Notes: generated by a model not told the origin, from the letters alone. A stretch of 64,000 bases of DNA from Alphaproteobacteria bacterium (GCA_965200215.1 OZ241369.1:1754-65753), one strand, 5' to 3'; shown: positions 11,263-58,044, counted from the stretch's first letter. Numbers and translations are program-made.

Positions 11263-11264
11263 AA

Positions 11265-37881: not shown

Positions 37882-38056
37882 GCCCGCCCCCCGCCGTCAG
37901 GCACCACACCCCACCACCCGCGCCCCCCTGGGAGCGCCGGCGTCCCGCCGGCAAACGGGCCGAAGGCCCGTCAACGCACCACACGCTCACCGCCAGGCAC
38001 CACCCCCACCACCCGCTCCCACCGGCCACCGACCACTGGCTACTGGCCACTAACCA
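37882..38056 (+). repeat. Dispersed intergenic repeat copy, + orientation.
   Basis: CCCTGGGAGCGCCGGCGTCCCGCCGGCAAACGGGCCGAAGGCCCGTCAACGCACC plus CCGCTCCCACCGGCCACCGACCACTGGCTACTGGCCACTAACCACTATCC. Confidence 0.8.
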
Positions 38057-39823
38057 CTATCCACCCCCCACCCCCGCCTCCACAAAGCGAATCCCAAAAT
38101 TCCCCGCCGGCACAGGCGCTTCCGGATACAGCCGGCGCATGATCCCCTCCCCATAGGTGTGGGTGATGGTCGGCGTAAAGTCCCGCCATCCGCGCACCGC
38201 CGCCCCGTCCCCCTCGCGGCCCAGGATGCGGACCCGGCCGAACTCCCACTCCACGGCGTAGCCGGCAACGGCCAGGTCCGGGCGCACGGTCACCAGATGG
38301 CTGACCGACCCCCGCAGCGTCTCCGGGTCGCTATGCAGGTGGTTGGCGGCGCCCGCCGCCCGGTCGTAGAACGGCACTTTGCGGTGCAGGTAATAGTAGC
38401 CGGGCGTGTCCAGATAGTCGTGATCGAGGTCCCATACCGCTTGCACCCCGGGCGTGTCGGCCAGCCAGCGATAGGCGGCGAACGCCGGGTCCTGGCCGTA
38501 GAGGAACCGCACGGGGTGCCTTATGTCCGCGCTGATCCCCTCCGTGAGCGCCTCGTCCCAGCGCGGCAACAGGTTCAGGGCGCCGGCCACCGACACCGCC
38601 GCGAACAGGGTGCCGGCGGTCCCGTACACCAGCGCGGCCCTGCCTCCGCCCCCGCGCGCATCGGGGGCAGGGGAGGGGCGTCGCCCGGCCAGCCACGCCA
38701 CCGCGCCGGCCCCGACCAGCAGCCACAGCGGCACCGCCGCGAACACGAAGCGGTATTCCTTGTGCTCCTCGATGGAATGGGGCACGAGGATCAGGGCGAT
38801 GAGGACGAGCAGGAACCCGTAGCGGCGCAGGTCGAGCAGCGCCGCCGCCGCGCACAGCGCGCTCAGCCCGCCCCCGAGGAACAGGAGCCACACCAGATAC
38901 TGGCCCCTCGGCCAGATCCGCACGACCGCATCGCGGTCGATCGCGAGATTGAATTCCAGATAGGTGCGATAGGAATGAAACAGCCCGCCGTCCCACGTCA
39001 CGGCGTCGAACACGCCCACCGCGAAGAAGAACGCGCTCGCCGCCGCCATGGCGTGTAGCCTGGCGGCCGTGCCGGCCCGCAGGAACCACAGGCCCAGCAG
39101 CGCCAGCGCCACCGGCGCATACTGGATCCGCACCGCCACCGTCAGCACCGCCAGGAAGGCGACCAGCCACGCCGCTGCCGCCCCGTCGCCGCCCGCCGCC
39201 GCCCCACCGCCGCGCGGCGCCCGCATGAACAGCGCCAGCAGCGCCATCGCCAGGGCGGCGCCGACGAACTCGGTCATCGGCTTGTGGGCGAAGCCGGTCA
39301 GCTCGTACCAGAACGCCCCCGCCACCAGCGCCACCCGCGCCGCCGCCTCGTCGAAATGCCGCCGCGCGAAGAAATACATCCCCGCCGGCACCGCCAGCGA
39401 AAGGGCGCAGAACGCCAGCTTGACCCCGCCGACATACCAAGCCGGCTGCCCCAGCCCCACGGCGTCGAACAGGACCAGGATGCCGCCGATCAGGCCGGGG
39501 ACGAGCCACGAGCGGGCACCGTAGAAGAACTCCCAATAGACGACGCCGTTGCCGAAGGCCAGCCGGTGCCCCTGCTCCAGATACTGCATGATCTCGTCGG
39601 GGTGCAGGACGAAATCGCCGTGGAGCGCGATAGCCGCCCGCGCCGCGAAGGCCAGCGCCAGCACCGGCCACAACCATCGCCACACCGGCTCGTCACCCGC
39701 CCCCAAATGCAACAACCCATCCACCACCCCACCCAGGCGGGCCGCCCAGCGCCCGCGCGGCTGCGAGGGCGCAGCGCGCTGCCTCCGCCGCGCCCTCCTC
39801 GCCTTTCTCTCCCTCTCAGCCAT
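38057..39823 (-). CDS. GT22-like mannosyltransferase, paralog 3 of 4.
   Basis: ATG at 39823 (MAERERKARRARRRQRAAPSQ...), HPDEIMQYLEQGH, 588 aa. Contains a short insertion (RAPRGGGAAAGGDGAAAAW) relative to paralogs 2 and 4. Confidence 0.75.
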   Translation of the reverse strand: MAERERKARRARRRQRAAPSQPRGRWAARLGGVVDGLLHLGAGDEPVWRWLWPVLALAFAARAAIALHGDFVLHPDEIMQYLEQGHRLAFGNGVVYWEFFYGARSWLVPGLIGGILVLFDAVGLGQPAWYVGGVKLAFCALSLAVPAGMYFFARRHFDEAAARVALVAGAFWYELTGFAHKPMTEFVGAALAMALLALFMRAPRGGGAAAGGDGAAAAWLVAFLAVLTVAVRIQYAPVALALLGLWFLRAGTAARLHAMAAASAFFFAVGVFDAVTWDGGLFHSYRTYLEFNLAIDRDAVVRIWPRGQYLVWLLFLGGGLSALCAAAALLDLRRYGFLLVLIALILVPHSIEEHKEYRFVFAAVPLWLLVGAGAVAWLAGRRPSPAPDARGGGGRAALVYGTAGTLFAAVSVAGALNLLPRWDEALTEGISADIRHPVRFLYGQDPAFAAYRWLADTPGVQAVWDLDHDYLDTPGYYYLHRKVPFYDRAAGAANHLHSDPETLRGSVSHLVTVRPDLAVAGYAVEWEFGRVRILGREGDGAAVRGWRDFTPTITHTYGEGIMRRLYPEAPVPAGNFGIRFVEAGVGGG

Positions 39824-40000
39824 ACCCGCACCCCGCCCCCAGCCAGCCGTCCAGCCCACCCACGCACCGTTCCCCGAGCGCCGGCGCCCCGCCGGCAAAC
39901 GGGCCGAAGGCCCGTCAACGCACCACACGCTCACCGCCAGGCACCACCCCCACCACCCGCTCCCACCGGCCACCGACCACTGGCTACTGGCCACTAACCA
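39824..40000 (+). repeat. Dispersed intergenic repeat copy, + orientation.
   Basis: Near-identical to the 37882-38056 copy. Confidence 0.8.
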
Positions 40001-41692
40001 CTAACCACCCCCCACCCCCGCCCCCACAAAGCGAATCCCAAAATTCCCCGCCGGCACAGGCGCTTCCGGATACAGCCGGCGCATCAGCCCCTCCCCATAG
40101 GTGTGGGTGATGGTCGGCGTAAAGTCCCGCCATCCGCGCACCGCCGCCCCGTCCCCCTCGCGGCCCAGGATGCGGACGCCGCCGAACTCCCACTCCACCG
40201 CCCAGCCGGCAACGGCAAGGTCCGGGTCCTCGGTCACCAGGTGGCTGACCGAACCCAAGAGCGCCTCCAGGTCGCTATGCAGGTGGTTGGCGAAGCCGGT
40301 CACCCGGTCGTAGAACGGCACCTTGCGGTGCAGGTAATAGTAGCCGGGAAGGTCGTGATAGGGGCGGTCGACCTGCCACACCGCCAGGACCCCGGGCGCG
40401 TCGGCGAGGTAGCGGTAGGCGGCGAACACCGGGTCCTGCTCGCGGACGAACCGGATGGGGGTGGAGGCGTTCGCGCCCAGCCCTTCATCCTCGCCCGGCA
40501 GGACGTTCAGGATGCCGCCCACAGAGATCGCCGCGAACAGAACGCCGGCCGCCCCGAACACCAGGGCCCGCCGCCCTCCGGCGCGGTCGGCCAGCCGCGC
40601 CACGACGCCGGCGCCGGCGAGCAGCCACAGCGGCACCACCGCGAAGACGAAGCGGTATTCCTTATGCGGCTCCACGGTGTGAAGCAGCAGGATCACGGCG
40701 ATCAGCGCGAGCACCAACCCGTAGCGGCGCAGGTCGAACAGCGCCATCGCCACGCACAGCGCGCTCAACCCCGCCCCGGTCCACAGCAGCCACGGCAGAT
40801 ACTGATGGGTTGGCCAGGCCGCCCTGTCGATCGCCAGATTGAATGCGAGATTGGCGCGATAGGAGTGGAACAGCCCGCCGTCCCACGTCACGGCGTCGAA
40901 CACGCCCACCGCGAAGAAGAACACCGCCGCGGCGATGGCGGCGTGCATCTTCGCGGCCTTGCCGGCGCGCAGGAACCACAGGCCCAGCAACGCCAGCGCC
41001 ACGGGCGCGTATTGTATTCGCACTGCCGCCGTCAGCACCGCCAGCAGGGCGACCGTCCAGGCCGCCGCCGCCCCGTCCTTGCGCGGCGGGCGGACGCACA
41101 GCGCCAGCAGCGCCATCGCCAGGGCAGCGCCGACGAACTCGGTCATCGGCTTGTGGGCGAAGCCGGCCAGCTCGTACCAGAACGCCCCGGCCACCAGCGC
41201 CACCCGCGCCGCCGCTTCGTCGAAATGCCGCCGCGCGAAGAAGTACATCCCCGCCGGAACCGCCAGCGAGAGGGCGCAGAACGCCAGCTTGACCCCGCCG
41301 ACATACCAGGCCGGCTGCCCCAGCCCCACGGCGTCGAACAGGACCAGGATGCCGCCGATCAGGCCGGGGACGAGCCACGAGCGGGCACCGTAGAAGAACT
41401 CCCAATAGACGACGCCGTTGCCGAAGGCCAGCCGGTGCCCCTGCTCCAGATACTGCATGATCTCGTCGGGGTGCAGGACGAAATCGCCGTGGAGCGCGAT
41501 AGCCGCCCGCGCCGCGAAGGCCAGCGCCAGCACCGGCCACAACCATCGCCACACCGGCTCGTCACCCGCCCCCAAATGCAACAACCCATCCACCACCCCA
41601 CCCAGGCGGGCCGCCCAGCGCCCGCGCGGCTGCGAGGGCGCAGCGCGCTGCCTCCGCCGCGCCTTCCTCGCCCTTCTCTCCCTCTCAGCCAT
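40001..41692 (-). CDS. GT22-like mannosyltransferase, paralog 4 of 4.
   Basis: ATG at 41692 (MAERERRARKARRRQRAAPSQ...), HPDEIMQYLEQGH, 563 aa. Has a distinct central and C-terminal segment (QYLPWLLWTGAGLSALCVAMALFDL...). Confidence 0.75.
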   Translation of the reverse strand: MAERERRARKARRRQRAAPSQPRGRWAARLGGVVDGLLHLGAGDEPVWRWLWPVLALAFAARAAIALHGDFVLHPDEIMQYLEQGHRLAFGNGVVYWEFFYGARSWLVPGLIGGILVLFDAVGLGQPAWYVGGVKLAFCALSLAVPAGMYFFARRHFDEAAARVALVAGAFWYELAGFAHKPMTEFVGAALAMALLALCVRPPRKDGAAAAWTVALLAVLTAAVRIQYAPVALALLGLWFLRAGKAAKMHAAIAAAVFFFAVGVFDAVTWDGGLFHSYRANLAFNLAIDRAAWPTHQYLPWLLWTGAGLSALCVAMALFDLRRYGLVLALIAVILLLHTVEPHKEYRFVFAVVPLWLLAGAGVVARLADRAGGRRALVFGAAGVLFAAISVGGILNVLPGEDEGLGANASTPIRFVREQDPVFAAYRYLADAPGVLAVWQVDRPYHDLPGYYYLHRKVPFYDRVTGFANHLHSDLEALLGSVSHLVTEDPDLAVAGWAVEWEFGGVRILGREGDGAAVRGWRDFTPTITHTYGEGLMRRLYPEAPVPAGNFGIRFVGAGVGGG

Positions 41693-42017
41693 GCCCGCAC
41701 CCCGCCCCCAGCCAGCCGTCCAGCCCACCCACACACCGTTTCCCCGAGCGCCACCGCCAGGCACCCCCGCCAGCGTCACGCCCCCCGGCAGCACCCAACG
41801 CCCACCGCCAGGCACCGACTGAGCGTCCGCCCCCTGGGAGCGCCGGCGTCCCGCCGGCAAACGGGCCGCAAGGCCCGTCAACGCACAAGCGCCCACCGCC
41901 AGGCACCACACCCACCCCCGCTCCCACCGACCACTGGCCACTGGCTACTGGCCACTAACCACTAACCACTAACCACTAACCACTAACCACTAACCACTAA
42001 CCACTAACCACCCCCCA
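41693..42017 (+). repeat. Dispersed repeat (two cores) ending in a minisatellite of about 8 TAACCAC units (41941-42012).
   Basis: CCCCTGGGAGCGCCGGCGTCCCGCCGGCAAACGGGCCGCAAGGCCCGTCAACGCACAAGCGCCC... then CCACTGGCCACTGGCTACTGGCCACTAACCACTAACCACTAACCACTAACCACTAACCACTAACCACTAACCACTAACCACC. Confidence 0.85.
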
Positions 42018-43583
42018 TCATTCCGGCGCAGACAGCCAGAGGATCGGCCTCGGATTGTCGACGTACTGCCGCATCACGTGCCGCTTCTCCGCCCTCTGCT
42101 GCTCGAAGTTGGCCACATGCCAGCCGATCTGCGAGCGCTGCCACCAGGGAGCGCTCTCGGAGGCGCCATGCGCCTCCTGTTGCTCCAGCCAGCCCAGGAT
42201 GTTGTAGGACCAGGCGCCGACGAACTGCACCGCGACCGACCACAGCAGCGCCGCCCCGAACAGCGCCGCCACCCGCCGCCCGGCCATGACCCGTTCCATC
42301 GCCGGCAGCATCGACAGCGCCAGCAACGGCGCCGTATCGACGATCGACCGGTAGCCCCAGGCCGCCCCACCCCACCAATCGTACCACCGGGCGGCCACCA
42401 CGATCATCGCCAGAGCGGCGACCTGGAGCGGCACCAGAGGGCGCCAGCGCGCCTGCCTCCAGGCCAGCGCCATGCCCGCGAATCCGAACAGCAGCACCGG
42501 CGAATAGAACGCCAGGCCCCGTTGCGGGCTGACCAGCAGCCCCGGCAGGCTCTCCCACAGCGGCCCCGACCAGATGTCCCCGGACCCCGTGGTCAGGAGC
42601 GCGATGGCTCTCGACGCGATCGTCTGCCCGAACTCGAAGGGACTGCCGAACCACCAGGCGTTGTATGCGAACAGAACGACGGCGAAGGGCGCCCCGCCGG
42701 CGAGATAGGCGGGCAGGCGGCGCCGGTCCGCCCACAGCAGCCAGAGGCCCACGCACAGCGCCGCCAGGACGCTCGGAGGCCGGCACAGCACCGCCATCCC
42801 CAGCGCCGCCCCGCAACAGGCCCCGGGGCGCCGCCGTTCGGGAGAGGCGAGCAGGAAGAAGGCGCCCAGCGTCAGGAAGAAGGAGTTGGCCGGATGCTGC
42901 CACAGCGCCTGGCTGCTCACCGGCCAGGCGCAGCTTCCCAGCCCGAAGGCCAGGGCCACCAGCAGGGCCGGCAGGGGGGCGGCGAAGCGCCGCGCGGCCA
43001 GGAAGATCAGCAGCGCCGTGGCTGCGGTCAGCAGGGAGGCGGTCAGGGCGCCGCCATGCCACCACCAGTGGCGGTCGGCCTCGATGTCGGTGAACAGGTC
43101 GAGGGCGGCATAGACCGGCAGCCCGGTCAGCGCCGCCCCGATGCCGAAGGTGTTGACGAACACGCCCGGCTGCCTGCTTTCGACCACCCAGTAGCGCCCG
43201 GTTGGCACCAGCCGTCCCTGCTGGTACAGGGCGGCGGCCTCCCGGTTCCATTCGCTGACCCGGTTCCAGCTGTCGAGGATGGCGCCCTGCGCTTCCTCGC
43301 CGGCCTCTTCCAGCCTCCACCGGAAGGCGTCCGGCGCGTCCGCCGGCGTGAGCGAGAAGGAGTGCCGCTTCAGCAGGTTGACGCTGAACAGCATGTTGGC
43401 TTCCTGGTCGCCGCCGTAGAGAAAGTCGCCATTGCCCACATAGGCCCCGAAACAGGCCAGGAACAAAAGCGCGGGCAGAAGCATCCGCCGGCGGGGCTTC
43501 TCCACCGCCAGGCGCTGCGGCTTCGGCGCCGCAGCCCCGGGCCCAACCCGCCCCCGCACCTTTTTCCGGGCACTCCTCACCAC
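42018..43583 (-). CDS. Polytopic membrane protein, putative GT-C glycosyltransferase (ArnT/PMT-like); paralog A.
   Basis: 521 aa, more than 10 TM helices, N-terminal LLLPALLFLACFGAYVGNGDFLYGGDQEANMLFSVNLLKRHSF. GTG start. Near-identical core to paralog B. Family assignment is tentative. Confidence 0.6.
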   Translation of the reverse strand: MVRSARKKVRGRVGPGAAAPKPQRLAVEKPRRRMLLPALLFLACFGAYVGNGDFLYGGDQEANMLFSVNLLKRHSFSLTPADAPDAFRWRLEEAGEEAQGAILDSWNRVSEWNREAAALYQQGRLVPTGRYWVVESRQPGVFVNTFGIGAALTGLPVYAALDLFTDIEADRHWWWHGGALTASLLTAATALLIFLAARRFAAPLPALLVALAFGLGSCAWPVSSQALWQHPANSFFLTLGAFFLLASPERRRPGACCGAALGMAVLCRPPSVLAALCVGLWLLWADRRRLPAYLAGGAPFAVVLFAYNAWWFGSPFEFGQTIASRAIALLTTGSGDIWSGPLWESLPGLLVSPQRGLAFYSPVLLFGFAGMALAWRQARWRPLVPLQVAALAMIVVAARWYDWWGGAAWGYRSIVDTAPLLALSMLPAMERVMAGRRVAALFGAALLWSVAVQFVGAWSYNILGWLEQQEAHGASESAPWWQRSQIGWHVANFEQQRAEKRHVMRQYVDNPRPILWLSAPE

Positions 43584-43804
43584 CGCCTCCCCATCCCTCG
43601 CCAGTGTTTAGGTTCGAAAATGGGCAGGCACCGCTCGCCACCACCCCCAGGCACTGCCCAGGCAGCCCGCCCCCGGCGGGCCATCCGGCCCGTCAACGCA
43701 CCACACGCCCACCGCCAGGCACCACCACCAGCCATCCACTCTCACCGACCACTGGCCACTGGCCACCGACCACTAGCCACCGACCACTAGCCACTAACCC
43801 CCCA
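43584..43804 (+). repeat. Dispersed repeat with head hairpin (GGTTCGAAAATGGGCAGGCACCGCTCGCC), core and tail; + orientation.
   Basis: Head, core GGCGGGCCATCCGGCCCGTCAACGCACC, tail CCACTCTCACCGACCACTGGCCACTGGCCACCGACCACTAGCCACCGACCACTAGCCACTAACC. Confidence 0.78.
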
Positions 43805-45331
43805 TCATTCCCCCACAGACAGCCAGAGGATCGGCCCCGATTTGCCGGCATAGTCCCGCATGATCGCCTGCTTCAGCGCCCTCTGCGGCCCGAAATGGGC
43901 CACATGCCAGACGATCTGCGGGCGCGTCCACTGCCACAGGCTGGCCTTGTCCGGATCGTCGTGCTCCTGCCACTGTTTCATCCAGCCCACCTGGCTGTAG
44001 GACCAGGCGCCGACGAACTGCACCGCGACCGACCACAGCAGCGCCACCCCGAACAGCGCCGCCACCCGCCGCCCGGCCATGACCCGCTCCATCGCCGGCA
44101 GCATCGACAGCGCCAGCAGCGGCGCCGTATCGACGATCGACCGGTAGCCCCAGGCCGCACCGCCCCACCAGTCATACCACCGGGCGGCCACCACGATCAT
44201 CGCCAGGGCGGCGACCTGGAGCGGCACCAGAGGGCGCCAGCGCGCCTGCCTCCAGGCCAGCGCCATGCCCGCGAATCCGAACAGCAGCACCGGCGAATAG
44301 AACGCCAGCCCCCGTTGCGGGCTGAACAGCAGCCCCGGCAGGCTCTCCCACAGCGGCCCCGACCAGATGTCCCCGGACCCCGTCAGCGCCAGCGCGATGG
44401 CCCGCGACGATATTGTCTGCCCGAACTCGAAGGGGCTGCCGAACCACCAGGCGTTGTATGCGAACAGAACGACGGCGAAGGGCAGACCGCCGGCGAGATA
44501 GGCGGGCAGGCGGCGCCGGTCCGACCACAGCAGCCAGAGGCCCACGCACAGCGCCGCCAGGGCGCTCGGAGGCCGGCACAACACCGCCATCCCCAGCGCC
44601 GCCCCGCAATAGGCCCCATGGCGCCGCCGTTCGGGAGAGGCGAGCAGGAAGAAGGCGCCCAGCGTCAGGAAGAAGGAGTTGGCCGGATGCTGCCACAGCG
44701 CCTGGCTGCTCACCGGCCAGGCGCAGCTTCCCAGCCCGAACGCCAGGGCCACCAGCAGGGCCGGCAAGGGGGCGACGAAGCGCCGCGCGGCCAGGAAGAT
44801 CAGCAGCGCTGTGGCTGCGGTCAACAGGGAGGCGGTCAGGGCGCCGCCATGCCACCACCACCAGCGGTCGGCCTCGATGTCGGTGAACAGGTCGAGGGCG
44901 GCATAGACCGGCAGCCCGGTCAGCGCCGCCCCGATGCCGAAGGTGTTGACGAACACACCCGGCTGCGCGGTCGTGGCCAGATAATGGGCATAGGCGGTCG
45001 GCACCAGCCGCCCCTGCTCCCAGAGCGCGGCGTCGAAGGCGACGGCCCGCCCTTCCTCCGCCAGCTTCCAGTGGAAGGAGGCCGGCGCGTCCGCCAGGGT
45101 GAGCGAGAAGGAGTGCCGCTTCAGCAGGTTGACGCTGAACAGCATGTTGCCTTCCTGGTCGCTGCCGTAGAGGAAGTCGCCATTGCCCACATAGGCCCCG
45201 AAACAGGCCAGGAACAAAAGCGCGGGCAGGAGCATCCGCCGGCGGGGCTTCTCCACCGCCCGGCGCTGCGGCCCGGGCGGTGCCTGCCCAGCCCGCCCCC
45301 GCACCCTTTTTCGGGCACTTCTCACCACCAC
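43805..45331 (-). CDS. Polytopic membrane protein, putative GT-C glycosyltransferase; paralog B (tandem duplicate of 42018..43583).
   Basis: About 85% identical to paralog A over the TM core, with divergent N-proximal loop and C-terminal tail. Probable GTG start near 45325-45331 (VVVRSARKRVRG). Confidence 0.6.
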   Translation of the reverse strand: MVVRSARKRVRGRAGQAPPGPQRRAVEKPRRRMLLPALLFLACFGAYVGNGDFLYGSDQEGNMLFSVNLLKRHSFSLTLADAPASFHWKLAEEGRAVAFDAALWEQGRLVPTAYAHYLATTAQPGVFVNTFGIGAALTGLPVYAALDLFTDIEADRWWWWHGGALTASLLTAATALLIFLAARRFVAPLPALLVALAFGLGSCAWPVSSQALWQHPANSFFLTLGAFFLLASPERRRHGAYCGAALGMAVLCRPPSALAALCVGLWLLWSDRRRLPAYLAGGLPFAVVLFAYNAWWFGSPFEFGQTISSRAIALALTGSGDIWSGPLWESLPGLLFSPQRGLAFYSPVLLFGFAGMALAWRQARWRPLVPLQVAALAMIVVAARWYDWWGGAAWGYRSIVDTAPLLALSMLPAMERVMAGRRVAALFGVALLWSVAVQFVGAWSYSQVGWMKQWQEHDDPDKASLWQWTRPQIVWHVAHFGPQRALKQAIMRDYAGKSGPILWLSVGE

Positions 45332-45359
45332 CGCCTCCCGGGAGCCGACCCGATCGCAT

Positions 45360-45700
45360 GATAGCCGGGAAGCCTGAAGCCGGGCAGCCCGCCCCCGGCG
45401 GGCCATCCGGCCCGCCCATACACCATCCCCCCGAGCGCCGGCGTCCCGCCGGCAACGGGCCGAAGGCCCGCCAACGCACCGCCCCCACCGCCAGGCGCCA
45501 TCCCCCATTTCCCGCTCTCACTGACTACCAGCCACTGGCCACTGGTCACAAGCCAGAGCCCCGCCGGCAAACGGGCCGAAGGCCCGCCAACGCACCACCC
45601 CCCACCGCCAGGCACCACACCCCACCACCCGCTCTCACTAACCACTAGCCACTAGCCACTGGCACCACCGCCTGCCACTCACAGCCCCGCCACGCTTGGC
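45360..45700 (+). repeat. Dispersed repeat, two or three core units plus tail, + orientation.
   Basis: GGCGGGCCATCCGGCCCGCC, GAGCGCCGGCGTCCCGCCGGCAACGGGCCGAAGGCCCGCCAACGCACC and GCCGGCAAACGGGCCGAAGGCCCGCCAACGCACC, tail CCGCTCTCACTAACCACTAGCCACTAGCCACTGGC. Confidence 0.8.
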
Positions 45701-45750
45701 CACCCGCGCCCCATGCGCTAAGGTAGCGAACGAGACCGGCGGAAACCGCC

Positions 45751-46107
45751 ATGCCGAAGATCAACCCCTTCATCACCCTGTTCTTCGCCATCGCAGCCAT
45801 GAACGTCGTCTTGTTCGGCTGGCAGCGTGCCGACATGACCGCCCTGGAAGCGCGCTTTGCCGCCCTGGAAACTCGCATCGAGGAACGCTTCAACCGCATC
45901 GAAGCCGGACAGGTGGAGCTGCGCGAGCGCATGGTCCGCATCGAAGCCGGACAGACGGAGTTGCGCCAGCGCACGGCCCGCATCGAGGCCGGTCAGGCGG
46001 AGTTGCGCGAGCGCATGGCGCGCATCGAAGGCACGGTCGCCGGCGCCCTGGCCCGCCCCGACCGCCTCGCCCAGGCGCCCACCGAAGAAGCCGAAGCCGC
46101 CAACTGA
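45751..46107 (+). CDS. Small N-terminally membrane-anchored coiled-coil protein with RIEAGQxELR repeats (paralog of 10894..11262).
   Basis: MPKINPFITLFFAIAAMNVVLFGWQRADMTALE...RIEAGQVELRERMVRIEAGQTELRQRTARIEAGQAELRERMARIEGTVAGALARPDRLAQAPTEEAEAAN. Also shares 40 bp of upstream sequence with the 10894 copy. Confidence 0.6.
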   Translation: MPKINPFITLFFAIAAMNVVLFGWQRADMTALEARFAALETRIEERFNRIEAGQVELRERMVRIEAGQTELRQRTARIEAGQAELRERMARIEGTVAGALARPDRLAQAPTEEAEAAN

Positions 46108-46398
46108 AGGGCGCCCCCAGTACCGACCGAGCGTCCCGCCCCCCGGCGGGCCGCCAGGCCCGCCCACACACCGTTCCCCGAGCGCCGGCGTCCCGCCGGC
46201 AAACGGGCCGGAGGCCCGCCAACGCACCACTCGCCACCGCCAGGCACCACTCCCCACCACCCGCTCTCACCGACCACTGGCCACTGGCCACCAGTCAGAG
46301 CGCCGGCGTCCCGCCGGCAACGGGCCGAAGGCCCGTCAACGCACCGCCCCCACCACCAGGCACCATCGCCATTCCCCGCTCTCACTAGCCACTAACCA
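46108..46398 (+). repeat. Dispersed repeat, three core units plus tail, + orientation; the IS is inserted into its tail.
   Basis: GGCGGGCCGCCAGGCCCGCCCACACACC, GAGCGCCGGCGTCCCGCCGGCAAACGGGCCGGAGGCCCGCCAACGCACC and GAGCGCCGGCGTCCCGCCGGCAACGGGCCGAAGGCCCGTCAACGCACC, tail CCGCTCTCACTAGCCACTAACCACTAG. Confidence 0.8.
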
Positions 46399-46399: not shown

Positions 46400-47251
46400 T
46401 AGGCTCAGGACCCATAAACGGTCTTGAGTATTGTTGTGAGAAGTGGTTCAAGCTCTTCCAGATATAGAGGAGGCTATCATGTCTGACCACCACTTCTGGT
46501 TATCGGATGCCCAGTTCGCCCGCATCCAGCCGCTGTTGCCCAACAAGGTGCGCGGTGTGCCCCGGGTCGATGACCGGCGCGTCATCTCGGGCATCATCCA
46601 CGTCATTCGCAACGGGCTGAGGTGGCGTGACGCGCCGCCTGAATACGGTCCTCACAAGACCCTCTACAACCGCTTCGTGCGCTGGAGCAGGGCTGGCGTA
46701 TTCGGACGCATCTTCGAGGCTCTGGCTGCCGACAGCCGGGCGTCGGGGACGGTGATGATCGACGCCACCTACCTGAAGGCTCACCGGACTGCGGCCAGCC
46801 TGCTCAAAAAGGGGCTTTTCCGCGATGTATCGGGCGTAGCCGAGGCGGCTTGAACTCGAAGCTGCACGCGGTTTGCGACGGCGATGGCAAGCCCTTGATC
46901 CTGCTGCTGACCGAGGGGCAGGCCAGCGACTACCGGGGTGCCGAGGCCATCTTGCCGGCAGTGCCGGACGCCGATGTCCTGATCGCCGACAAGGGCTATG
47001 ACAGCGACCGTTTCCGCCAAGCCCTGGCCGAACGGCGCATCGAGACATGCATCCCCGGACGGGCGAACCGCAAGAGGCCGGTAGAATATGACCCAAAGCT
47101 ATACCAGCGGCGAAACCTCATCGAACGGATGTTCGGAAGGCTCAAGGACTGGAGGCGCATCGCCACACGATACGACCGATGCGCGCACACCTTCTTTAGC
47201 GCTATCTGCATCGCCGCCACCGTCATCTTCTGGTTATGAGTCCTGAGCCTA
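46400..47251 (+). mobile_element. IS5-family (IS427-group) insertion sequence, about 850 bp. Terminal inverted repeats GGCTCAGGAC(C/T)CATAA. Transposase in two ORFs (orfA 46479..46853, orfB 46850..47239) joined by a probable -1 frameshift at CAAAAAG (46805-46811). Inserted at a CTAG site with a TA duplication.
   Basis: Left end ...CTAGGCTCAGGACCCATAAACGG. Right end CCGTTTATGAGTCCTGAGCCTAG (rc matches the left end). orfA MSDHHFWLSDAQFARIQPLLP... has the HTH. orfB ...GGLNSKLHAVCDGDGKPL...ADKGYDS has the DDE motifs. Lower GC than the flanks. Confidence 0.85.
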
Positions 47252-51956: not shown

Positions 51957-52993
51957 ATGGCGGCACCGGCGATGGCCGACTGGAACACGGAAGCATTCTG
52001 GAAAACCGCCACGGAGGCGGACGTCTCGCGCTGCCTGGCGGACGGCGCCGACCCGAAGGCGCGAGCCGAGGACGGGATGACACCCCTGCACCATGCGGCG
52101 GCGGGTAGCGCGGCTCCGGCTGTGGTGACGGCGTTGCTTGATGCCGGCGCCGGCCTGGAAGCGCGGGACGAAGGCCGACGGACACCTCTGTACCGGGCGG
52201 CGGCGTTCAGCAAGGCCCCGCTGGTGGTAGTGGCGCTGCTGGACGCCGGCGCCGATCTGGAAGCGCGGGACGAAGTCGGGGGGACACCCCTGCATGTGGC
52301 GGCAGCGCTCAGCAAGGTCCCGGCGGTGGTAGTGGCGCTGCTGGGCGCTGGCGCCGATCTGGAAGCGCGGAGCGGAGGCGGGCTGACACCCTTGCATGTG
52401 GCGGCGGCGCTCAGCAAGGTCCCGGCGGTGGTAGTGACGCTGCTGGGAGCTGGCGCCGATCTGGAAGCGCGGACCGAAGGTGGACAGACACCTCTGCACC
52501 GGGCGGCGGCGTTCAGCAAGGTCCCGGCGGTGGTAGTGGGGTTGCTGGACGCCGGCGCCGATCTGGAAGCGCGGGACGAGGACGGGGCGACGCCCTTGCA
52601 CTATGCAGCGGGGTGGAACAAGACCCCGGCGGTGGCGACGGCGTTGCTGGATGCCGGTGCCGACCCGGCGGCACGGACCGAAGGCGGGCGGACGCCCCTG
52701 CATATAGCGGCGACGTTCAGCAAGACCCCGGTGGTAGTGACGGCGTTGCTGGCCGCTGGCGCCGATCTGGAAGCGCGGGATGAATACGGATGGACGCCTC
52801 TGCATGTGGCGGCGGTGGGCAGCGAGGCCCCCCCTCGGCGGTGGTGACGGCGCTGCTGGCTGCCGGCGCTAACCCGGCGGCGAGAGACGCGGACGGCTGC
52901 ATCCCCTGGGATCTCATCGAGGACGACTCTCCGCTCAAGGGAAGCGACGTCTATCGGCAGTTGAAAGACGCCCGCTTCCAGCGGCGGCGGTGA
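51957..52993 (+). CDS. Ankyrin-repeat protein (8-9 ANK repeats) interrupted by a -1 frameshift in a C7 homopolymer at 52829-52835. A C8 tract would restore a 345-aa ORF.
   Basis: Repeats of the type G(x)TPLH(x)AAxxSKxPAVVVALLxAGADLEARD. Frame 1 stops at 52847 (..GSEAPPRRW*). Frame -1 (52790..52993) continues the ANK consensus (SAVVTALLAAGANPAARDADGCIPWD...). Confidence 0.75.
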
Positions 52994-53084
52994 GCAGGAC
53001 CCTGGCGGTGACAGCGCTGGATGCTGGCGCCGCAAGCAGCATGGCTACGGCCTGCGCCGCCAGCAACGACGGCAGGCGGTAACG

Positions 53085-53290
53085 CCTCGGTTTGAAAATG
53101 GGCAGGTGCCGTTTGCCGCTACTTCCCAGGCGTCCCGCCTCCAGGCACCGACCGAGCGTCCCGCCCCCTGGGAGCGCCGGCGTCCCGCCGGCAAACGGGC
53201 CGAAGGCCCGCCGACACACCGCCCCCACCGCCGGGCACTGCCGCCATTTCCCGCTCTCACTAACCACTGACCACTGACCGAAGCGCCGGC
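53085..53290 (+). repeat. Dispersed repeat (head hairpin + core + tail), + orientation; left boundary of BrnTA cassette copy 1.
   Basis: CGGTTTGAAAATGGGCAGGTGCCGTTTGCC head, GGGAGCGCCGGCGTCCCGCCGGCAAACGGGCCGAAGGCCCGCCGACACACC core, CCGCTCTCACTAACCACTGACCACTGACC tail. Confidence 0.8.
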
Positions 53291-53342
53291 GCGCGAGAGG
53301 CGGCGTAGAAAAACATTGTGATTCTTCGCCCCCGTGCGGCGG

Positions 53343-53600
53343 TCACACAGTGCCGTTTCTCCCGATCCACTCCCGAAGCGCCTCGTCGATCCGCGTCTGC
53401 CAGCCGTGACCTCCGGCCTTGAAGTGATCGATCACGTCCCGCGACAGGCGGATCGTCGTCGATACCTTCGGTTTGGCGACCGGCGGCCGGCCGCGCCGAA
53501 CAGCCGTCTTGGCGAACTTTTCCGGCCAACCGTCTTCGGAAAGGTCAGGCGCGGTGTCCCGATCGAAATCTCGGGCCATAGAGCGTTCGTTCCCGTTCAT
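53343..53600 (-). CDS. brnA: BrnA-family antitoxin (copy 1).
   Basis: RRGRPPVAKPKVSTTIRLSRDVIDHFKAGGHGWQTRIDEALREWI is the BrnA signature (RHH-like). Confidence 0.75.
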   Translation of the reverse strand: MNGNERSMARDFDRDTAPDLSEDGWPEKFAKTAVRRGRPPVAKPKVSTTIRLSRDVIDHFKAGGHGWQTRIDEALREWIGRNGTV

Positions 53601-53833
53601 TGGCTTTCCTCACACTAATGATCCGATGCGCACCGTCGCGCGGTGTCCAGACCAGGACCACCATCGCGCCGTCGAGAAACCCCACGGTGATGAAGCGGTC
53701 CTCAACCATAGTCCCGCCGGTCGTCCTCGATGGTCAGCGTGGCACCCGCGAACACCTCCCCAGCCCGGGCCATATCCAGCCCCCTGACCCTGAGCGTGGC
53801 CGCGCGCTTCGCCGCGTCAAACTCAATCGGCAT
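53545..53833 (-). pseudogene. brnT: BrnT-family (DUF497) toxin gene with a +1 frameshift (extra T in GGT[T]GAG at ~53702); copy 1.
   Basis: N-terminal ORF MPIEFDAAKRAATLRVRGLDMARAGEVFAGATLTIEDDRRDYG* (ends 53702). The BrnT C-terminus continues in the +1 frame: EDRFITVGFLDGAMVVLVWTPRDGAHRIISVRKANERE.... The identical lesion is present in copy 2. Confidence 0.6.
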
Positions 53834-53919
53834 GATTAATGTTACAACACTAAATCTGCTTGTCCAAGAGATTCCTCATTCCCCGGCTAAGGCCGGAAAG
53901 TCAGGGCTTCCTGGGTAGT

Positions 53920-54060
53920 GCCTCGGTTTGAAAATGGGCGGATGGTGTTTGCCACCCCCGGGGCAGGCCGCCCCCGGGAGCGCCGGCGTCCCGCCGGAAA
54001 ACGGGCCGCAAGGCCCGTCAACGCACCACCCGCCCACCGCCAGGCGATCGAGCGGCCGGA
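53920..54060 (+). repeat. Dispersed repeat (head hairpin + core), + orientation; right boundary of BrnTA cassette copy 1.
   Basis: CGGTTTGAAAATGGGCGGATGGTGTTTGCCACC plus CCCGGGAGCGCCGGCGTCCCGCCGGAAAACGGGCCGCAAGGCCCGTCAACGCACC. Confidence 0.78.
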
Positions 54061-54084
54061 GGCATCGCCGGCGGCCATCGGGGG

Positions 54085-54546
54085 CTAGCTGTCGAGCTTG
54101 GGCAGGTCCGGCAGCTGGCCGAACGCGATGCCTTCGTCGCGCAATTGCCGGGCCTGGTCGCGGGTCGCCTGGCCGTAGATGTTGCGCCGCTCGCCCTCGC
54201 CGTAGTGGATCTTGCGCGCCTCCTCGGCGAAACCGGTGCCGACGTCGTCGAAATGACGCTCCACATGCTCCTTCAGGGCGTGCATCATGGCCACGGCACC
54301 GCTCGTCTTTTCCTTGTGCCGGGCGAGCGTCACCCGCTCCTTCCCCTTCGCCTCGGCGGGCGCCTCTCCGCCGGCCCCGCCGCCGGTCGCCACATGGGGA
54401 GCCATCAACGCCTTCTCCACCCTGGTATCGCCGCAGACCGGGCAGGCGATGCCGCCCGCCTCGGCCTGGGCGCGGAAATCGTCGCTGCTGCGGAACCAGC
54501 CCTCGAACACATGGTCCTTGCCGCATTTCACGTCGAAGACGATCAT
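54085..54546 (-). CDS. DUF1178-family zinc-ribbon protein.
   Basis: MIVFDVKCGKDHVFEGWFRSSDDFRAQAEAGGIACPVCGD is the characteristic DUF1178 N-terminus. Confidence 0.8.
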   Translation of the reverse strand: MIVFDVKCGKDHVFEGWFRSSDDFRAQAEAGGIACPVCGDTRVEKALMAPHVATGGGAGGEAPAEAKGKERVTLARHKEKTSGAVAMMHALKEHVERHFDDVGTGFAEEARKIHYGEGERRNIYGQATRDQARQLRDEGIAFGQLPDLPKLDS

Positions 54547-54566
54547 GGCCCGTGCCGACTCCGGCG

Positions 54567-55172
54567 ATGCCACCCGACTATATGGACCTCGCGATGGCGG
54601 CGGACAAGACGGCGCGGGCGGCCGGCCCGGCGCCCAGCCCCTGGATCCTGCGTTTCGCGCCGCAGGTGGCCGCCGGCGGCACGGTGCTGGACGTAGCGGC
54701 CGGCAGCGGCCGCCACGCCCGCCTGTTCCTGGCGCGCGGCCACAGCGTGGTGGCGGTGGACCGCAGGCCGGACGGCCTGGCGGACATCGCCCGCCATCCC
54801 CTGGCCCGCATCGTGAAGGCCGACCTGGAAGACGGCGGCCCCTGGCCCTTCGGCGAGCGGCGCTTCGCGGCCGTGGTGGTGACCAATTACCTCCATCGCC
54901 CGCTGCTGCCCGCATTGGTGGCGGCGGTGGCCACCGGCGGCCACCTGCTCTACGAGACCTTCGCGCGGGGCAACGAGCGCTTCGGCCGCCCCGCCAACCC
55001 CGACTTTCTGCTCCGTCCGGGCGAACTGCTGCGGGCGGTCGCCGGCCAGCTGCGCGTCGTCGCCTATGAGGACCGCATCGTCCGCCGCCCGCGTCCGGCG
55101 GCCGTGCAGAGGATCTGCGCCCGCCGCGAGGGCTACTCCGCCGCTTCGTCCAGCGCCAGCGGCGGCGCATAG
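54567..55172 (+). CDS. Class I SAM-dependent methyltransferase.
   Basis: SAM-binding motif VLDVAAGSGRHARLFLARGHSVVAVD. Confidence 0.75.
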   Translation: MPPDYMDLAMAADKTARAAGPAPSPWILRFAPQVAAGGTVLDVAAGSGRHARLFLARGHSVVAVDRRPDGLADIARHPLARIVKADLEDGGPWPFGERRFAAVVVTNYLHRPLLPALVAAVATGGHLLYETFARGNERFGRPANPDFLLRPGELLRAVAGQLRVVAYEDRIVRRPRPAAVQRICARREGYSAASSSASGGA

Positions 55173-55981
55173 GGCCGGTCGTGCGCCAGGGCGGGGACGG
55201 TCGCCCGCACCCGCGCCACCTCGGCCATATCGACCTCGGCCATGCACAAGCCCGTGCCGACGCCGGCATCGGCGAGCACCCGCCCCCAGGGATCGACGAT
55301 CAGCGAATGGCCGCAGGTGCGCCGCCCGCCGGGATGATGCCCCGTCTGGCAGGCGGCGAAGACGAAGGCGCCGCATTCGATGGCGCGCGCCCGCAGCAGC
55401 ACCTCCCAATGGGCGTCGCCGGTCACCTTGGTGAAGGCGGCCGGCACGCTCAGCAGCACGGCCCCGGCCTTGGCGAGATCGCGGTAGAGATGGGGAAAGC
55501 GCAGGTCGTAGCAGACCGTCATGCCCAGCTTTCCCCAGGGCGTGGACGCCAGCACCGCCTTGCCGCCGGGATGGAACATGGCCGATTCCCGGTAGCGCGA
55601 GCCATCCGGCAGATCCACGTCGAACATGTGGATCTTCTCGTAATCGGCGACCGTGCGCCCGCATCCGTCGAACAGGAAGGCGTGGTTGGCGAGGGTGCCG
55701 TCGGCGCGCAGGGCGGCGACCGAGCCGGCCTGCAGCCATATCCCGGTCTCGGCGGCGACGGCGGCGAAGGCCCGCAGCGCCGGATGGTCGGCGGGGCGGT
55801 GCGCGTTCTCCAGCCGCTCCTCCTCGCTGGCCGCCATCAGGGCGACGTTCTCCGGCAGGCCGACCAGATGAGCGCCTTTCGCCGCCGCTTCGCGCACCAG
55901 GGCGCAGGCGGCGGCGATGTTGGCGTCCATGTCGAGCTGCGCGTTCACCTGCACGCAGGCGATTTTCAGAGGGGCGCTCAT
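55133..55981 (-). CDS. Carbon-nitrogen hydrolase (nitrilase superfamily amidohydrolase).
   Basis: Catalytic E (GLPE), K (YEKIHMFD) and C (TVCYDLRFP) triad. Confidence 0.85.
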   Translation of the reverse strand: MSAPLKIACVQVNAQLDMDANIAAACALVREAAAKGAHLVGLPENVALMAASEEERLENAHRPADHPALRAFAAVAAETGIWLQAGSVAALRADGTLANHAFLFDGCGRTVADYEKIHMFDVDLPDGSRYRESAMFHPGGKAVLASTPWGKLGMTVCYDLRFPHLYRDLAKAGAVLLSVPAAFTKVTGDAHWEVLLRARAIECGAFVFAACQTGHHPGGRRTCGHSLIVDPWGRVLADAGVGTGLCMAEVDMAEVARVRATVPALAHDRPYAPPLALDEAAE

Positions 55982-56238
55982 GCGGCCTCGCCCAGCCTGG
56001 CGTCCAGCAGGCCGTCGCGCTCCAGCGCGTGCAGCTCGTCGCAGCCGCCCACCGGCTCGCCGTCGATCACGACCTGCGGCACGGTGCGGGCGCCGCACAA
56101 CGCCTCCATCTCGGCGCGCCGGGCGGCATCCATCGTCACGTCGATCTCGCGAAAGGCGACGCCCTTGGCGCGCAACAGGCGCTTCGCCCGCTCGCAGAAC
56201 GGGCACAGAATGCCAGTATAGACGACCACCTCGGCCAT
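55978..56238 (-). CDS. grxC: Glutaredoxin 3.
   Basis: VVVYTGILCPFCERAKRLL (CPFC active site) ... TVPQVVIDG. Confidence 0.9.
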   Translation of the reverse strand: MAEVVVYTGILCPFCERAKRLLRAKGVAFREIDVTMDAARRAEMEALCGARTVPQVVIDGEPVGGCDELHALERDGLLDARLGEAA

Positions 56239-56284
56239 GGGCCGAAACTAAGGCATGGCCCGCCCACCCGCAAGTGGGCAGTGC

Positions 56285-56460
56285 CCCGGTTTGAAAATGG
56301 GTAGGCGCCATTCACCGCCATCCCCAGGCGCCCCCCTGGGAGCGCCGGCGTCCCGCCGGCAAACGGGCCAAAGGCCCGTCAACGCACTGCCCCCACCGCC
56401 AGGCACTACCGCCATTTTCCCGCTCTCACTAACCACTAACCACTGACCAAAGCGCCGGCG
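56285..56460 (+). repeat. Dispersed repeat (head hairpin + core + tail), + orientation; left boundary of BrnTA cassette copy 2.
   Basis: CGGTTTGAAAATGGGTAGGCGCCATTCACCGCC, GGGAGCGCCGGCGTCCCGCCGGCAAACGGGCCAAAGGCCCGTCAACGCAC, CCGCTCTCACTAACCACTAACCACTGACC. Confidence 0.8.
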
Positions 56461-56511
56461 CGCGAGAGGCGGCGTAGAAAAACATTGTGATTCTTCGCTC
56501 CCGTGCGGCGG

Positions 56512-56769
56512 TCACAAAGTGCCGTTTCTCCCGATCCACTCCCGAAGCGCCTCGTCGATCCGCGTCTGCCAGCCGTGACCTCCGGCCTTGAAGTGATCGA
56601 TCACGTCCCGCGACAGGCGGATCGTCGTCGATACCTTCGGTTTGGCGACCGGCGGCCGGCCGCGCCGAACAGCCGTCTTGGCGAACTTTTCCGGCCAACC
56701 GTCTTCGGAAAGGTCAGGTGCGGTGTCCCGATCGAAATCTCGGGCCATAGAGCGGTCGTTCCCGTTCAT
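56512..56769 (-). CDS. brnA: BrnA-family antitoxin (copy 2; 1 aa different from copy 1).
   Basis: Same sequence as 53343..53600 apart from E5D. Confidence 0.75.
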   Translation of the reverse strand: MNGNDRSMARDFDRDTAPDLSEDGWPEKFAKTAVRRGRPPVAKPKVSTTIRLSRDVIDHFKAGGHGWQTRIDEALREWIGRNGTL

Positions 56770-57002
56770 TGGCTTTCCTCATGCTGATGATCCGATGCGC
56801 GCCGTCGCGCGGTGTCCAGACCAGGACCACCATCGCGCCGTCGAGAAACCCCACGGTGATGAGGCGGTCCTCAACCATAGTCCCGCCGGTCGTCCTCGAT
56901 GGTCAGCGTGGCACCCGCGAACACCTCCCCAGCCCGGGCCATATCCAGCCCCCTGACCCTGAGCGTGGCCGCGCGCTTCGCCGCGTCAAACTCAATCGGC
57001 AT
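56714..57002 (-). pseudogene. brnT: BrnT-family toxin gene with the same +1 frameshift (copy 2).
   Basis: Identical TATGGTTGAGGACCGC junction to copy 1; N-terminal 43-aa ORF then the BrnT C-terminus in the +1 frame. Confidence 0.6.
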
Positions 57003-57089
57003 GATTAATGTTACAACACTAAATCTGCTTGTCCAAGAGATTCCTCATTCCCCGGCTAAGGCCGGAAAGTCAGGGCTTCCTGGGTAGTG

Positions 57090-57265
57090 CCTCGGTTTGA
57101 AGATGGGCAGGCGCCATTCACCGCCATCCCCAGGCGCCCCCCTGGGAGCGTCGGCGTCCCGCCGGCAAACGGGCCGCAAGGCCCGCCAACGCACCACACG
57201 CCCACCGCCAGGCACCATCCCCACCCCCGCTCCCACCGACCACTGGCCACTAACCACTATCCACC
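57090..57265 (+). repeat. Full-length dispersed repeat (head hairpin + core + tail), + orientation; right boundary of BrnTA cassette copy 2.
   Basis: CGGTTTGAAGATGGGCAGGCGCCATTCACCGCCATCCCCAGGCGCCCCCCTGGGAGCGTCGGCGTCCCGCCGGCAAACGGGCCGCAAGGCCCGCCAACGCACCACACGCCCACCGCCAGGCACCATCCCCACCCCCGCTCCCACCGACCACTGGCCACTAACCACTATCC. Confidence 0.85.
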
Positions 57266-57294
57266 CAGCGCGCGCCCCGCCCGGCGACCGCCCG

Positions 57295-58044
57295 TCAGGG
57301 GAAGACGACCCGCGCCAGCACGGCGACATCGACCCGCGCCGCGCCTGCCCGCCTGAGCGCCGCGGTGCAGGCTCCGACCGTAGCGCCGGTGGTCATCACG
57401 TCGTCGATCAGCAGCACGCGGCGGTCTTCGACGGCGGCGGCGCGGCGGCCCCGCACGGCGATGGCGCCGCGCAGATTGGCGATCCGCTGGTGCCGGTCCA
57501 GCCCGCCCTGGGAGGACGTGGCCCGGCGGCGGACCAGCAGGTCGGGCATGGCGGGGCGGCTGGCGCGGCGCGCCAGGGCATTGGCCAGCAGGGCCGACTG
57601 GTTGAACCGCCGCCACCACAGCCGCCGCCAGTGCAGCGGCACCGGGCAGACGATCTCCGCCTCGGCCAGCGCCTCCGCGCTCACCAACTCCAGCCAGCGG
57701 ACGAAGACGTCGAGATGGTGCAGGCGGTCGCCGCGCTTGAAGCCGACCAGCAGCTGCGCGATGGTGTTGTTGTAGCGCAGCGCGGCGCGGGCGCGATCGA
57801 AGGCCGGCGGTTGGGCGGCGCAGCCGGCGCATATCGCCTTCGGCCCGTGGTCCAGACGGAAGGGCAGGCCGCAGCGCGCGCATTGGGGCGCAGAGATGAA
57901 GTCCAGACCCGACCAGCAGGTCCCGCACAGCGCGCCCTGCAGGTGGACGATTTCGCCGCAGGCGAGGCAGCGCGGCGGCAGCGCGGTATCGACGGCGCGC
58001 CTGCCGGCCCGCTTCAGGAAGGCGAGCGAATGCATAGGCGCCAT
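57295..58044 (-). CDS. comF: ComF-family phosphoribosyltransferase (double zinc ribbon + PRT domain).
   Basis: CLACGEIVHLQGALCGTCWSGL...CARCGLPF (two zinc ribbons) and the PRPP-binding VLLIDDVMTTGATV. Confidence 0.8.
   Translation of the reverse strand: MAPMHSLAFLKRAGRRAVDTALPPRCLACGEIVHLQGALCGTCWSGLDFISAPQCARCGLPFRLDHGPKAICAGCAAQPPAFDRARAALRYNNTIAQLLVGFKRGDRLHHLDVFVRWLELVSAEALAEAEIVCPVPLHWRRLWWRRFNQSALLANALARRASRPAMPDLLVRRRATSSQGGLDRHQRIANLRGAIAVRGRRAAAVEDRRVLLIDDVMTTGATVGACTAALRRAGAARVDVAVLARVVFP

Follow-up and report, generated by a model that had tools for sequence, protein, structure and literature searches.

A frameshift common to two brnT-brnA toxin-antitoxin cassettes of an alphaproteobacterium and its probable spread by gene conversion

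Introduction

BrnT is a ribonuclease toxin with a BECR fold that is encoded ahead of its antitoxin, BrnA, a ribbon-helix-helix protein that represses the promoter of the operon (PMC11980606, PMC5086665). A stretch of 64,000 nucleotides (nt) from an Alphaproteobacteria bacterium (GCA_965200215.1, OZ241369.1:1754-65753), referred to here as the window, has a G+C content of 71.4% and contains two copies of such a brnT-brnA (brnTA) toxin-antitoxin (TA) module, in both of which the toxin gene is interrupted by the same extra nucleotide. How did two paralogous genes come to share one lesion, and what is left of the TA module? We addressed these questions by comparing the two copies with each other, with related contigs and with known BrnT proteins. 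We are fairly confident of the resulting account as a whole, according to which a mobile brnTA module was present at two sites before the frameshift arose, gene conversion then spread the lesion to the second copy, and a locus with a dead toxin remained.

Two direct cassettes with an interrupted toxin gene and an intact antitoxin gene

Positions refer to the numbering of the whole stretch, and the cassette genes are on the minus strand (Table 1). Pairwise alignment and self-BLAST matched 53164-54045 to 56332-57213 in direct orientation, with 95.4% identity over 886 nt, which agrees with the two near-identical direct cassettes of about 0.9 kb that an initial annotation of this DNA had described. 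The core pair (646 nt) is 98.6% identical, and copy 2 is offset from copy 1 by 3169 nt. Read along the minus strand, each core contains a promoter-like site, a 43-codon open reading frame (ORF) ending in TGA, a 54-codon ORF in the +1 frame, and an 85-codon ORF. The promoter-like site (TGGACA-16-TAACAT) resembles a sigma-70 promoter; it matched only twice in 52900-57400, once per copy, compared with 0.2 matches expected from shuffled sequences. Each cassette is bounded by copies of a dispersed repeat of 110 to 200 nt, here termed the head.

Both brnT copies read GAC TAT GGT TGA GGA CCG, where intact alleles have GGT GAG, and the extra T follows codon 43. The lesion is thus the one initially annotated, with a 43-amino-acid (aa) ORF and the C-terminal half in the +1 frame; in copy 1 the C-terminal ORF begins at an ATG that overlaps the new stop codon (ATGGTTGA). 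Searches with profile hidden Markov models (HMMs) supported the assignment to BrnT and BrnA. After removal of one T, a BrnT of 95 aa was obtained that covers positions 1-77 of the 77 positions of PF04365 with 77.5 bits (cut-off, 34.5). As encoded, the N-terminal half scored 23 bits, which is under this cut-off, and the C-terminal half 43.1 bits. BrnA, of 85 aa in both copies and encoded directly downstream of brnT with an overlap of its 3' end, matched PF14384 with 72.4 bits (cut-off, 26.1). Both brnT genes are pseudogenes, since the whole domain is not contained in a single uninterrupted ORF.

The BrnT profile matched the solved BrnT structures 7vd7 and 3u97. A Protein Data Bank search with the single sequence reached 7vd7 only, and the profile was required for 3u97, the match to which is distant (E-value, 2e-4). 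We used an AlphaFold2 model of an intact homologue that is 92% identical (predicted local distance difference test score, 77.5), in which the predicted elements are beta1 (residues 3-5), alpha1 (7-16), alpha2 (21-30), beta2 (33-37), a loop (38-45), beta3 (46-53), beta4 (56-65), beta5 (68-76), and alpha3 (79-93). In this model the break at G43 falls in the beta2-beta3 loop. For BrnT of Brucella abortus, residues Asp6, Glu7, Lys9, Arg41, and Glu78 were reported to be important for RNase activity (PMC5086665). The profile alignment to 3u97 places D6, A7, K9, R46, and E81 at these positions, so that four are kept and E7 is replaced by Ala; D6 and K9 are in the N-terminal fragment, R46 and E81 in the C-terminal fragment. 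Three of the four core strands are missing from the 43-aa product, as are the C-terminal helix and two of the four conserved RNase residues. Because it keeps only D6, K9, and one core strand, it should be inactive, as judged from the model. BrnA is probably still made, since brnA has its own ribosome-binding site (GAGGA, 6 nt upstream of its ATG) and the promoter is untouched.

Sister contigs place the duplication before the frameshift

By locating where close homologues are encoded, we found five contigs that are apparently of the same species. They allow comparison of the two insertion sites, site 1 next to the DUF1178 gene (copy 1 in the window) and site 2 next to the comF-like gene (copy 2), which lie on either side of a four-gene block of 2.2 kb. 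Contig L001, which shares 12 kb with the window at 94-99% identity, has brnTA at both sites, and both brnT genes are intact with GGTGAG. Contig L083 (696 kb) has an intact brnTA at site 2 and an empty site 1. In L082, site 1 holds a brnTA with the same extra T, this being its only cassette, and at site 2 a segment containing hsdM replaces comF and the cassette. Contig L084, from a different sample, has at site 2 higBA, a partial head, a brnT without promoter and without about the first 24 codons, and an intact brnA; it stops about 230 nt past DUF1178, so that only site 2 can be read from it. The short contig L085 contains an intact brnTA that could not be assigned to a site. L001, L082, and L083 are from one sample and have coverages of 6x, 7x, and 34x, respectively.

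Because L001 has both sites filled and both brnT genes intact, these comparisons indicate that both insertions, and with them the duplication, are older than the frameshift. The cassettes are also recent, strain-variable insertions into a conserved core block, since the sister contigs vary and 75 other alphaproteobacterial loci, retrieved by means of the CN_hydrolase protein, have the block with no brnTA within 8 kb; most of these loci keep grxC and DUF1178 beside the hydrolase. These loci include the next relative, L002 (91% protein identity).

The comF-grxC gap is an insertion hotspot. In L084 (4060-5258) it holds the higBA cassette and, directly after this, a head by which brnT is truncated, and in L082 (97-2356) the hsdM segment, whose hsdM encodes a type I restriction-modification methylase.

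Clustered identity points to short-tract gene conversion

A table of the variable positions of eight cassettes comprised 32 variable core columns. Between the two window copies, a tract of 238 nt shows no differences; it comprises the promoter, brnT up to codon 46, the extra T, and column 28, where both copies have a T. This T is private to the window, the six other cassettes all having C. The core differences between the copies, 12 in number, are without exception downstream of this tract, the first one 10 nt past the extra T (53694/56863). Were the differences evenly spread, the chance of finding none in the first 234 of 649 columns would be 0.0047. The 5' part is itself capable of variation, as it contains 10 of the variable columns. 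Downstream of the lesion the copies differ at 12 of 415 core positions, a divergence of 2.9%. In this part copy 1 carries a haplotype, X, that is close to L085, L001 site 2, and L083, and copy 2 carries a haplotype, Y, that almost matches L082 and is also near that of L001 site 1; among the contigs, the 3' haplotypes form a mosaic. A substitution, F47L, is linked to the extra T on the Y haplotype, at a distance of 10 nt, both in the window and in L082.

Because all core differences are downstream of an identical tract that holds both column 28 and the extra T, the clustered identity points to short-tract gene conversion. As for its direction, we infer that the extra T arose first on the Y copy and was transferred with column 28 to the X copy in a short conversion tract. 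Such a tract would have had a minimum length of about 200 nt and a maximum of 238 nt, with its end no more than 10 nt beyond the extra T. The complete sequence of events would start with a horizontally mobile type II module, brnT-brnA, two paralogous copies of which inserted into two repeat-filled intergenic gaps flanking the conserved alphaproteobacterial block of grxC, CN-hydrolase, methyltransferase, and DUF1178 genes. The single T after codon 43 would stop BrnT in the beta2-beta3 loop and so inactivate the toxin. The remaining locus, with a dead toxin and a live antitoxin, may reflect neutral decay, or BrnA may be kept as a protection against incoming homologous toxins.

Several points weigh against this account. 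The tract must stop in the 10 nt that separate the extra T from the next difference, which is possible but tight. The sites of X and Y in the window are the reverse of those in L001 and L082, which one conversion event does not explain. The lesion was read from the assembled consensus and not from raw reads, and the metagenome sample of L082 may be that of the window, so that the evidence of L082 for the extra T may be less than fully independent. The loss of toxicity and the expression of BrnA enter the account as predictions. The upstream head at site 1 (53940-53975) also differs between the window and L001 and L082; together with the swapped haplotypes, this points to repeated exchange or to mis-phasing in one of the assemblies.

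Alternative explanations for the shared lesion

The extra T could be an assembly or polishing artefact, either because the consensus is systematically wrong or because a real variant of one copy was carried over to the other when reads mapped to both repeats. The 238-nt context is identical at both sites, so that a context-specific or multi-mapping error would affect both, and the only other carrier, L082, is a contig of low coverage (7x). However, L001 and L083, from the same sample as L082, have an identical local sequence and yet read GGTGAG. The change is from T to TT and involves no long homopolymer. An alignment of about 10 kb with L001, L083, and L084 showed no indels in non-repetitive coding sequence other than the two extra Ts, and the comparison with L084, a scaffold from a different sample, gave 0 gaps in 3.86 kb. 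Moreover, F47L is a private substitution that accompanies the frameshifted haplotype in the window as well as in L082. The contig names resemble those given by a HiFi metagenome assembler. Neither allele of the shift site (GGGACTATGG[N0-1]TGAGGACCGC) nor the core of the head was found in scans of Joint Genome Institute (JGI) metagenomes, and the lineage is therefore absent from that collection. On balance, we consider an artefact improbable.

According to the initial annotation, the cassette may have been duplicated after the mutation, a single frameshifted cassette having been copied as a whole to the second site. This would account for the lesion and the identical head junctions that both copies have in common, and L083 shows that the site next to DUF1178 can be empty. 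It is at odds with the intact brnT genes at both sites of L001, with the downstream differences between the copies, which match two haplotypes present in other strains, and with the differing upstream heads of the two copies. We therefore abandoned this explanation as very unlikely.

A further option is a split, two-piece toxin, in which reinitiation at the overlapping start and stop codons (AUGGUUGA) produces residues 44-95 and the two halves reassemble into an attenuated RNase. The ATG of the C-terminal ORF is 2 nt before the new stop codon, the break is predicted to fall in the beta2-beta3 loop, and the residues required for activity are divided 2 + 2, so that neither half alone should be active; the brnT copies of a genome are also in the same state (2/2 in the window and 1/1 in L082). 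We nevertheless rate a split toxin as highly unlikely, because this ATG is merely the native TAT GGT read out of frame and because a further substitution, F47L, has accumulated on one frameshifted haplotype. The ATG is not preceded by a good Shine-Dalgarno sequence, the allele is restricted to one lineage, and other lineages drop the toxin by outright deletion.

The initial annotation had also suggested that the shift is tolerated or programmed. A +1 ribosomal frameshift that tunes the toxin dosage would resemble that of prfB, the gene of release factor RF2, in which +1 recoding depends on a slippery codon and a Shine-Dalgarno stimulator at a fixed spacing. The brnT site shares with prfB the +1 direction and an in-frame UGA exactly at the shift point. 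Unlike prfB, it has no CUU-U slippery codon, as in GAC TAT GGT TGA G the P-site GGU does not re-pair as GUU, and by direct reading there is no Shine-Dalgarno-like run 3 nt upstream, the prfB spacing. Nor is the site conserved. A search with the repaired BrnT returned about 2000 homologues, and among the matches listed 120 of 120 are single ORFs of 87-148 aa with 79-96% identity, in which Y42, E44, and R46 are invariant and G43 is nearly invariant. In an exact look-up in 15 billion proteins, the 43-aa and 54-aa products occurred in clusters (90% identity) of this allele only, encoded on the window's own 2.76-Mb contig and on one other contig. Four cassettes of the same species are unshifted at the site, and sister strains with the same flanks do not have the extra T. 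The site is not a member of the prfB class; we give a programmed shift next to no credence and rejected it for lack of conservation and of recoding features. The extra T is a polymorphic allele and not a recoding device.

Two independent, identical T insertions at a mutational hotspot would explain why the extra T occurs on both the X and the Y background, but GGTGAG is neither a repeat nor a homopolymer and the second private variant in the same tract, at column 28, would be left unexplained, which makes this coincidence extremely improbable.

The toxin is lost first in related modules

Decay that begins with the toxin was also seen elsewhere in this cassette family. In L084 the 5' end of brnT is truncated and brnA is whole, and in L095, from another organism, the promoter and about 58 brnT codons are lost and brnA is whole, while the same locus is intact in L092. 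The sequences thus indicate that the toxin was lost independently twice more (L084 and L095), with brnA kept each time, which fits the initial proposal that a broken toxin and an intact antitoxin mark a decaying TA locus. In L095 (4933-5258) and L092 (4633-5122), the brnTA module is located between a DUF3237 gene and a PRA-CH gene.

The module is also a mobile one. Over a stretch that starts about 70 nt before the brnT ATG and ends shortly after the brnA stop codon, its DNA is 92% identical to that of L092, an unrelated locus, and the same stretch is 85% identical to contigs with quite different neighbour genes.

In comparison with BrnTA of B. abortus (PDB 3U97; PMC5086665, PMC11980606), the module has the same toxin-first operon of PF04365 and PF14384 genes with a promoter-like site directly upstream, the modelled toxin has the same beta-alpha-alpha-beta4-alpha topology, and equivalents of D6, K9, R41, and E78 are kept. 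Among the differences, the relationship is a distant one, Ala stands at the E7 position, brnT and brnA share 56 nt, and there are two modules, separated by 2.2 kb, with a frameshift in each toxin gene.

Chromosomal TA loci in decay, in which the toxin is dead and the antitoxin kept, are known, for example, ccdO157 in Escherichia coli, and the idea of "anti-addiction" has been advanced for them. The brnTA locus resembles these in the small toxin lesion, the intact antitoxin and promoter, the polymorphism of intact and dead alleles among strains, and the independent lesions in different lineages. It is unlike them in that two paralogous copies have a single lesion, apparently through exchange between the copies. 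The brnTA locus is an ordinary decaying TA module that involves no new mechanism. Its value would lie in documenting a toxin-killing frameshift that gene conversion has made common to a pair of paralogous TA copies, and in the several states captured among sister strains (both copies intact, one cassette, both dead, and truncated), which illustrate toxin-first TA decay.

The enclosed block and its flanks

Pfam matches agree with the initial assignment of the enclosed genes to DUF1178, a methyltransferase, a nitrilase-family hydrolase, and grxC (Table 1). The instability that had been predicted for this block, namely, its deletion or amplification by recombination between the direct repeats, is plausible for repeats of 0.65-0.9 kb that demonstrably recombine. 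Among the available contigs, neither loss nor amplification of the 2.2-kb block was seen, only presence or absence of cassettes and exchange between copies. Beyond copy 1, the ankyrin-repeat gene varies in length among sister contigs, where the products called at that position have 168-369 aa.

Table 1. Positions of the brnTA cassettes, head repeats, and neighbouring genes, and of one structured RNA, in the window
Feature	Position	Strand	Details
Cassette 1 core, site 1 (DUF1178 side)	53280..53925	-	Upstream leader, promoter, brnT, brnA, 3' untranslated region
Cassette 2 core, site 2 (comF side)	56450..57094	-	Core alignment with cassette 1
Promoter-like site, copy 1	53839..53866	-	TGGACA-16-TAACAT; ends 5 nt before brnT ATG
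Promoter-like site, copy 2	57008..57035	-	
brnT-1 N-terminal ORF	53702..53833	-	43 aa + TGA; PF04365 positions 1-38; carries D6 and K9 equivalents
Extra T, copy 1	53704..53705	-	TT; single T in intact alleles
brnT-1 C-terminal half	53545..53709	-	+1 frame; PF04365 positions 40-77; carries R46 and E81 equivalents
brnA-1	53343..53600	-	Intact, 85 aa; own GAGGA Shine-Dalgarno; PF14384
brnT-2 N-terminal ORF	56871..57002	-	43 aa + TGA
Extra T, copy 2	56873..56874	-	TT
brnT-2 C-terminal half	56714..56878	-	+1 frame; with F47L, a site whose conservation among homologues is at least 90%
brnA-2	56512..56769	-	Intact antitoxin gene
Zero-difference tract	53695..53932	-	238 nt, compared base by base with 56864-57101; putative gene-conversion tract
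Head downstream of brnA-1	53080..53277	+	nhmmer, 161 bits
Head upstream of brnT-1	53916..54045	+	Truncated, without heptamer tail
Head downstream of brnA-2	56279..56446	+	
Head upstream of brnT-2	57084..57253	+	
DUF1178 gene	54085..54546	-	PF06676, 172.8 bits
Class I S-adenosylmethionine-dependent methyltransferase gene	54570..55172	+	PF13649
CN_hydrolase (nitrilase superfamily) gene	55133..55981	-	L001 orthologue carries PF00795; 80 syntenic loci retrieved by its protein
grxC (glutaredoxin)	55978..56238	-	
comF-like phosphoribosyltransferase gene	57295..58038	-	Bounds site 2; PF18912, PF00156
Ankyrin-repeat gene, beyond copy 1	51957-52847	+	Seven 102-nt tandem repeats, 72-80% identical
Bacterial small signal recognition particle RNA	141-236	+	RF00169, 62.3 bits

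The heads are a dispersed repeat of the lineage

The initial annotation had treated the heads as part of the cassette layout. They do bound each cassette, but they do not belong to its design: an HMM of the head found 38 copies in the window (7-57253; for example, 41802-41944, 53080-53277, and 56279-56446), in nearly every intergenic gap and whatever the strand of the neighbouring genes. Cassette-specific repeats are thus the third tempting reading that this locus corrects, besides a programmed frameshift and a duplication after the mutation. All 38 heads are on the plus strand, with no inverted doublets, and occur as full or truncated modules that are sometimes in tandem. The consensus comprises two hairpins (GCCGGCG-TCC-CGCCGGC and CGGGCC-GCAA-GGCCCG), a C-rich stretch, and 3 to 7 tandem CACTRRC heptamers. 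Fold z-scores ranged from -0.3 to -2.9, with two short local hairpins and no pairing of one end with the other. A scan of the whole window against Rfam at gathering thresholds returned only the signal recognition particle RNA (Table 1) and no family for the heads or for the untranslated regions of the cassettes. Among the fetched loci, heads were present only in contigs of the same species and were absent from L002 (about 87% nt identity) and from the 75 other loci. By their sequence and distribution, the heads are a lineage-specific dispersed intergenic repeat and not part of the cassette.

Two known classes of repeat were considered and rejected. Repetitive extragenic palindromic (REP) sequences, bacterial interspersed mosaic elements (BIMEs), and REP doublets forming hairpins (REPINs) are dispersed intergenic repeats (PMC3116915, PMC8266576), which the heads resemble in being short, hairpin-bearing, intergenic, very abundant, and lineage-specific. 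Typical REP and REPIN elements are palindromes in inverted pairs that accompany a RAYT gene. Unlike REPINs, the heads are never in inverted pairs, as all 38 have the same orientation, and they end in the CACTRRC heptamers. Arrays of attC sites are the other candidate. Chromosomal integrons contain species-specific attC repeats in arrays that point one way and adjoin an intI integrase gene and an attI site, and the heads are likewise co-oriented and flank small accessory cassettes that are duplicated and strain-variable. However, the head consensus contains neither a single imperfect palindrome nor the inverse core pair RYYYAAC/GTTRRRY, and the heads separate core genes, on both strands, whose synteny persists in relatives without heads.

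The head may still have a part in cassette traffic, as a plausible source of the homology by which small cassettes are copied from gap to gap. The higBA cassette of L084 is also directly adjoined by a head. The empty site of L083 is not the product of a deletion between two heads, as an orphan head fragment followed by a complete head remains there; insertion or deletion must therefore have used non-equivalent points. The GC skew of the plus strand is negative throughout the window. A strict strand bias is a trait of elements that act on single strands and target the lagging strand (PMC5027513, PMC6006769), and by analogy the bias of the heads could point to a replication-linked or single-strand mode of spread.

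A more far-reaching possibility, which we regard as rather unlikely but worth stating, is that the strictly co-oriented heads are portable recombination sites by which small cassettes with a promoter are captured, duplicated, and exchanged among gaps, by homology or through a single-strand or site-specific enzyme. Candidate cassettes would be brnTA, higBA, and a coiled-coil ORF at 10.7 kb and 45.6 kb; on this view, integron-like traffic that needs no integron would have produced both brnTA copies and the frameshift common to them as a side effect, and the host is pictured as having a small, symbiont-like chromosome. At the density found in the window, heads would occupy several percent of the chromosome, and the head family is more unusual than brnTA.

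Other features of the window

A second duplicated cassette flanked by heads is found at 10718-11298 and 45560-46140 (88.6% identity over 597 nt). It encodes a membrane-anchored coiled-coil ORF of 118-122 aa, and a related pair of small ORFs is at 11448-11753 and 23275-23568, both on the minus strand. A stop-free frame of 3665 codons (11990-22984, minus strand) contains internal repeats of about 340 nt that are 74-82% identical, and heads lie inside its 5' end (22224-22497). The last 999 codons had no Pfam match; judged by its sequence, the frame possibly encodes a giant surface protein with internal repetition.

On the minus strand, 34256-45517 is occupied by six paralogous genes in tandem (about 530-650 codons each; 74-91% nt identity between neighbours), each of which is followed by a head; the AT skew of this region is strongly positive (up to 0.27). 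One of the paralogues that were tested matches PF03901 (Glyco_transf_22, the Alg9-like mannosyltransferase family), and the one at 42018-43607 has no Pfam match. Finally, two overlapping ORFs on the plus strand (46443-46853 and 46850-47239) resemble the two halves of a transposase of the IS5 family of insertion sequences; halves of this kind are normally joined by a programmed -1 frameshift.

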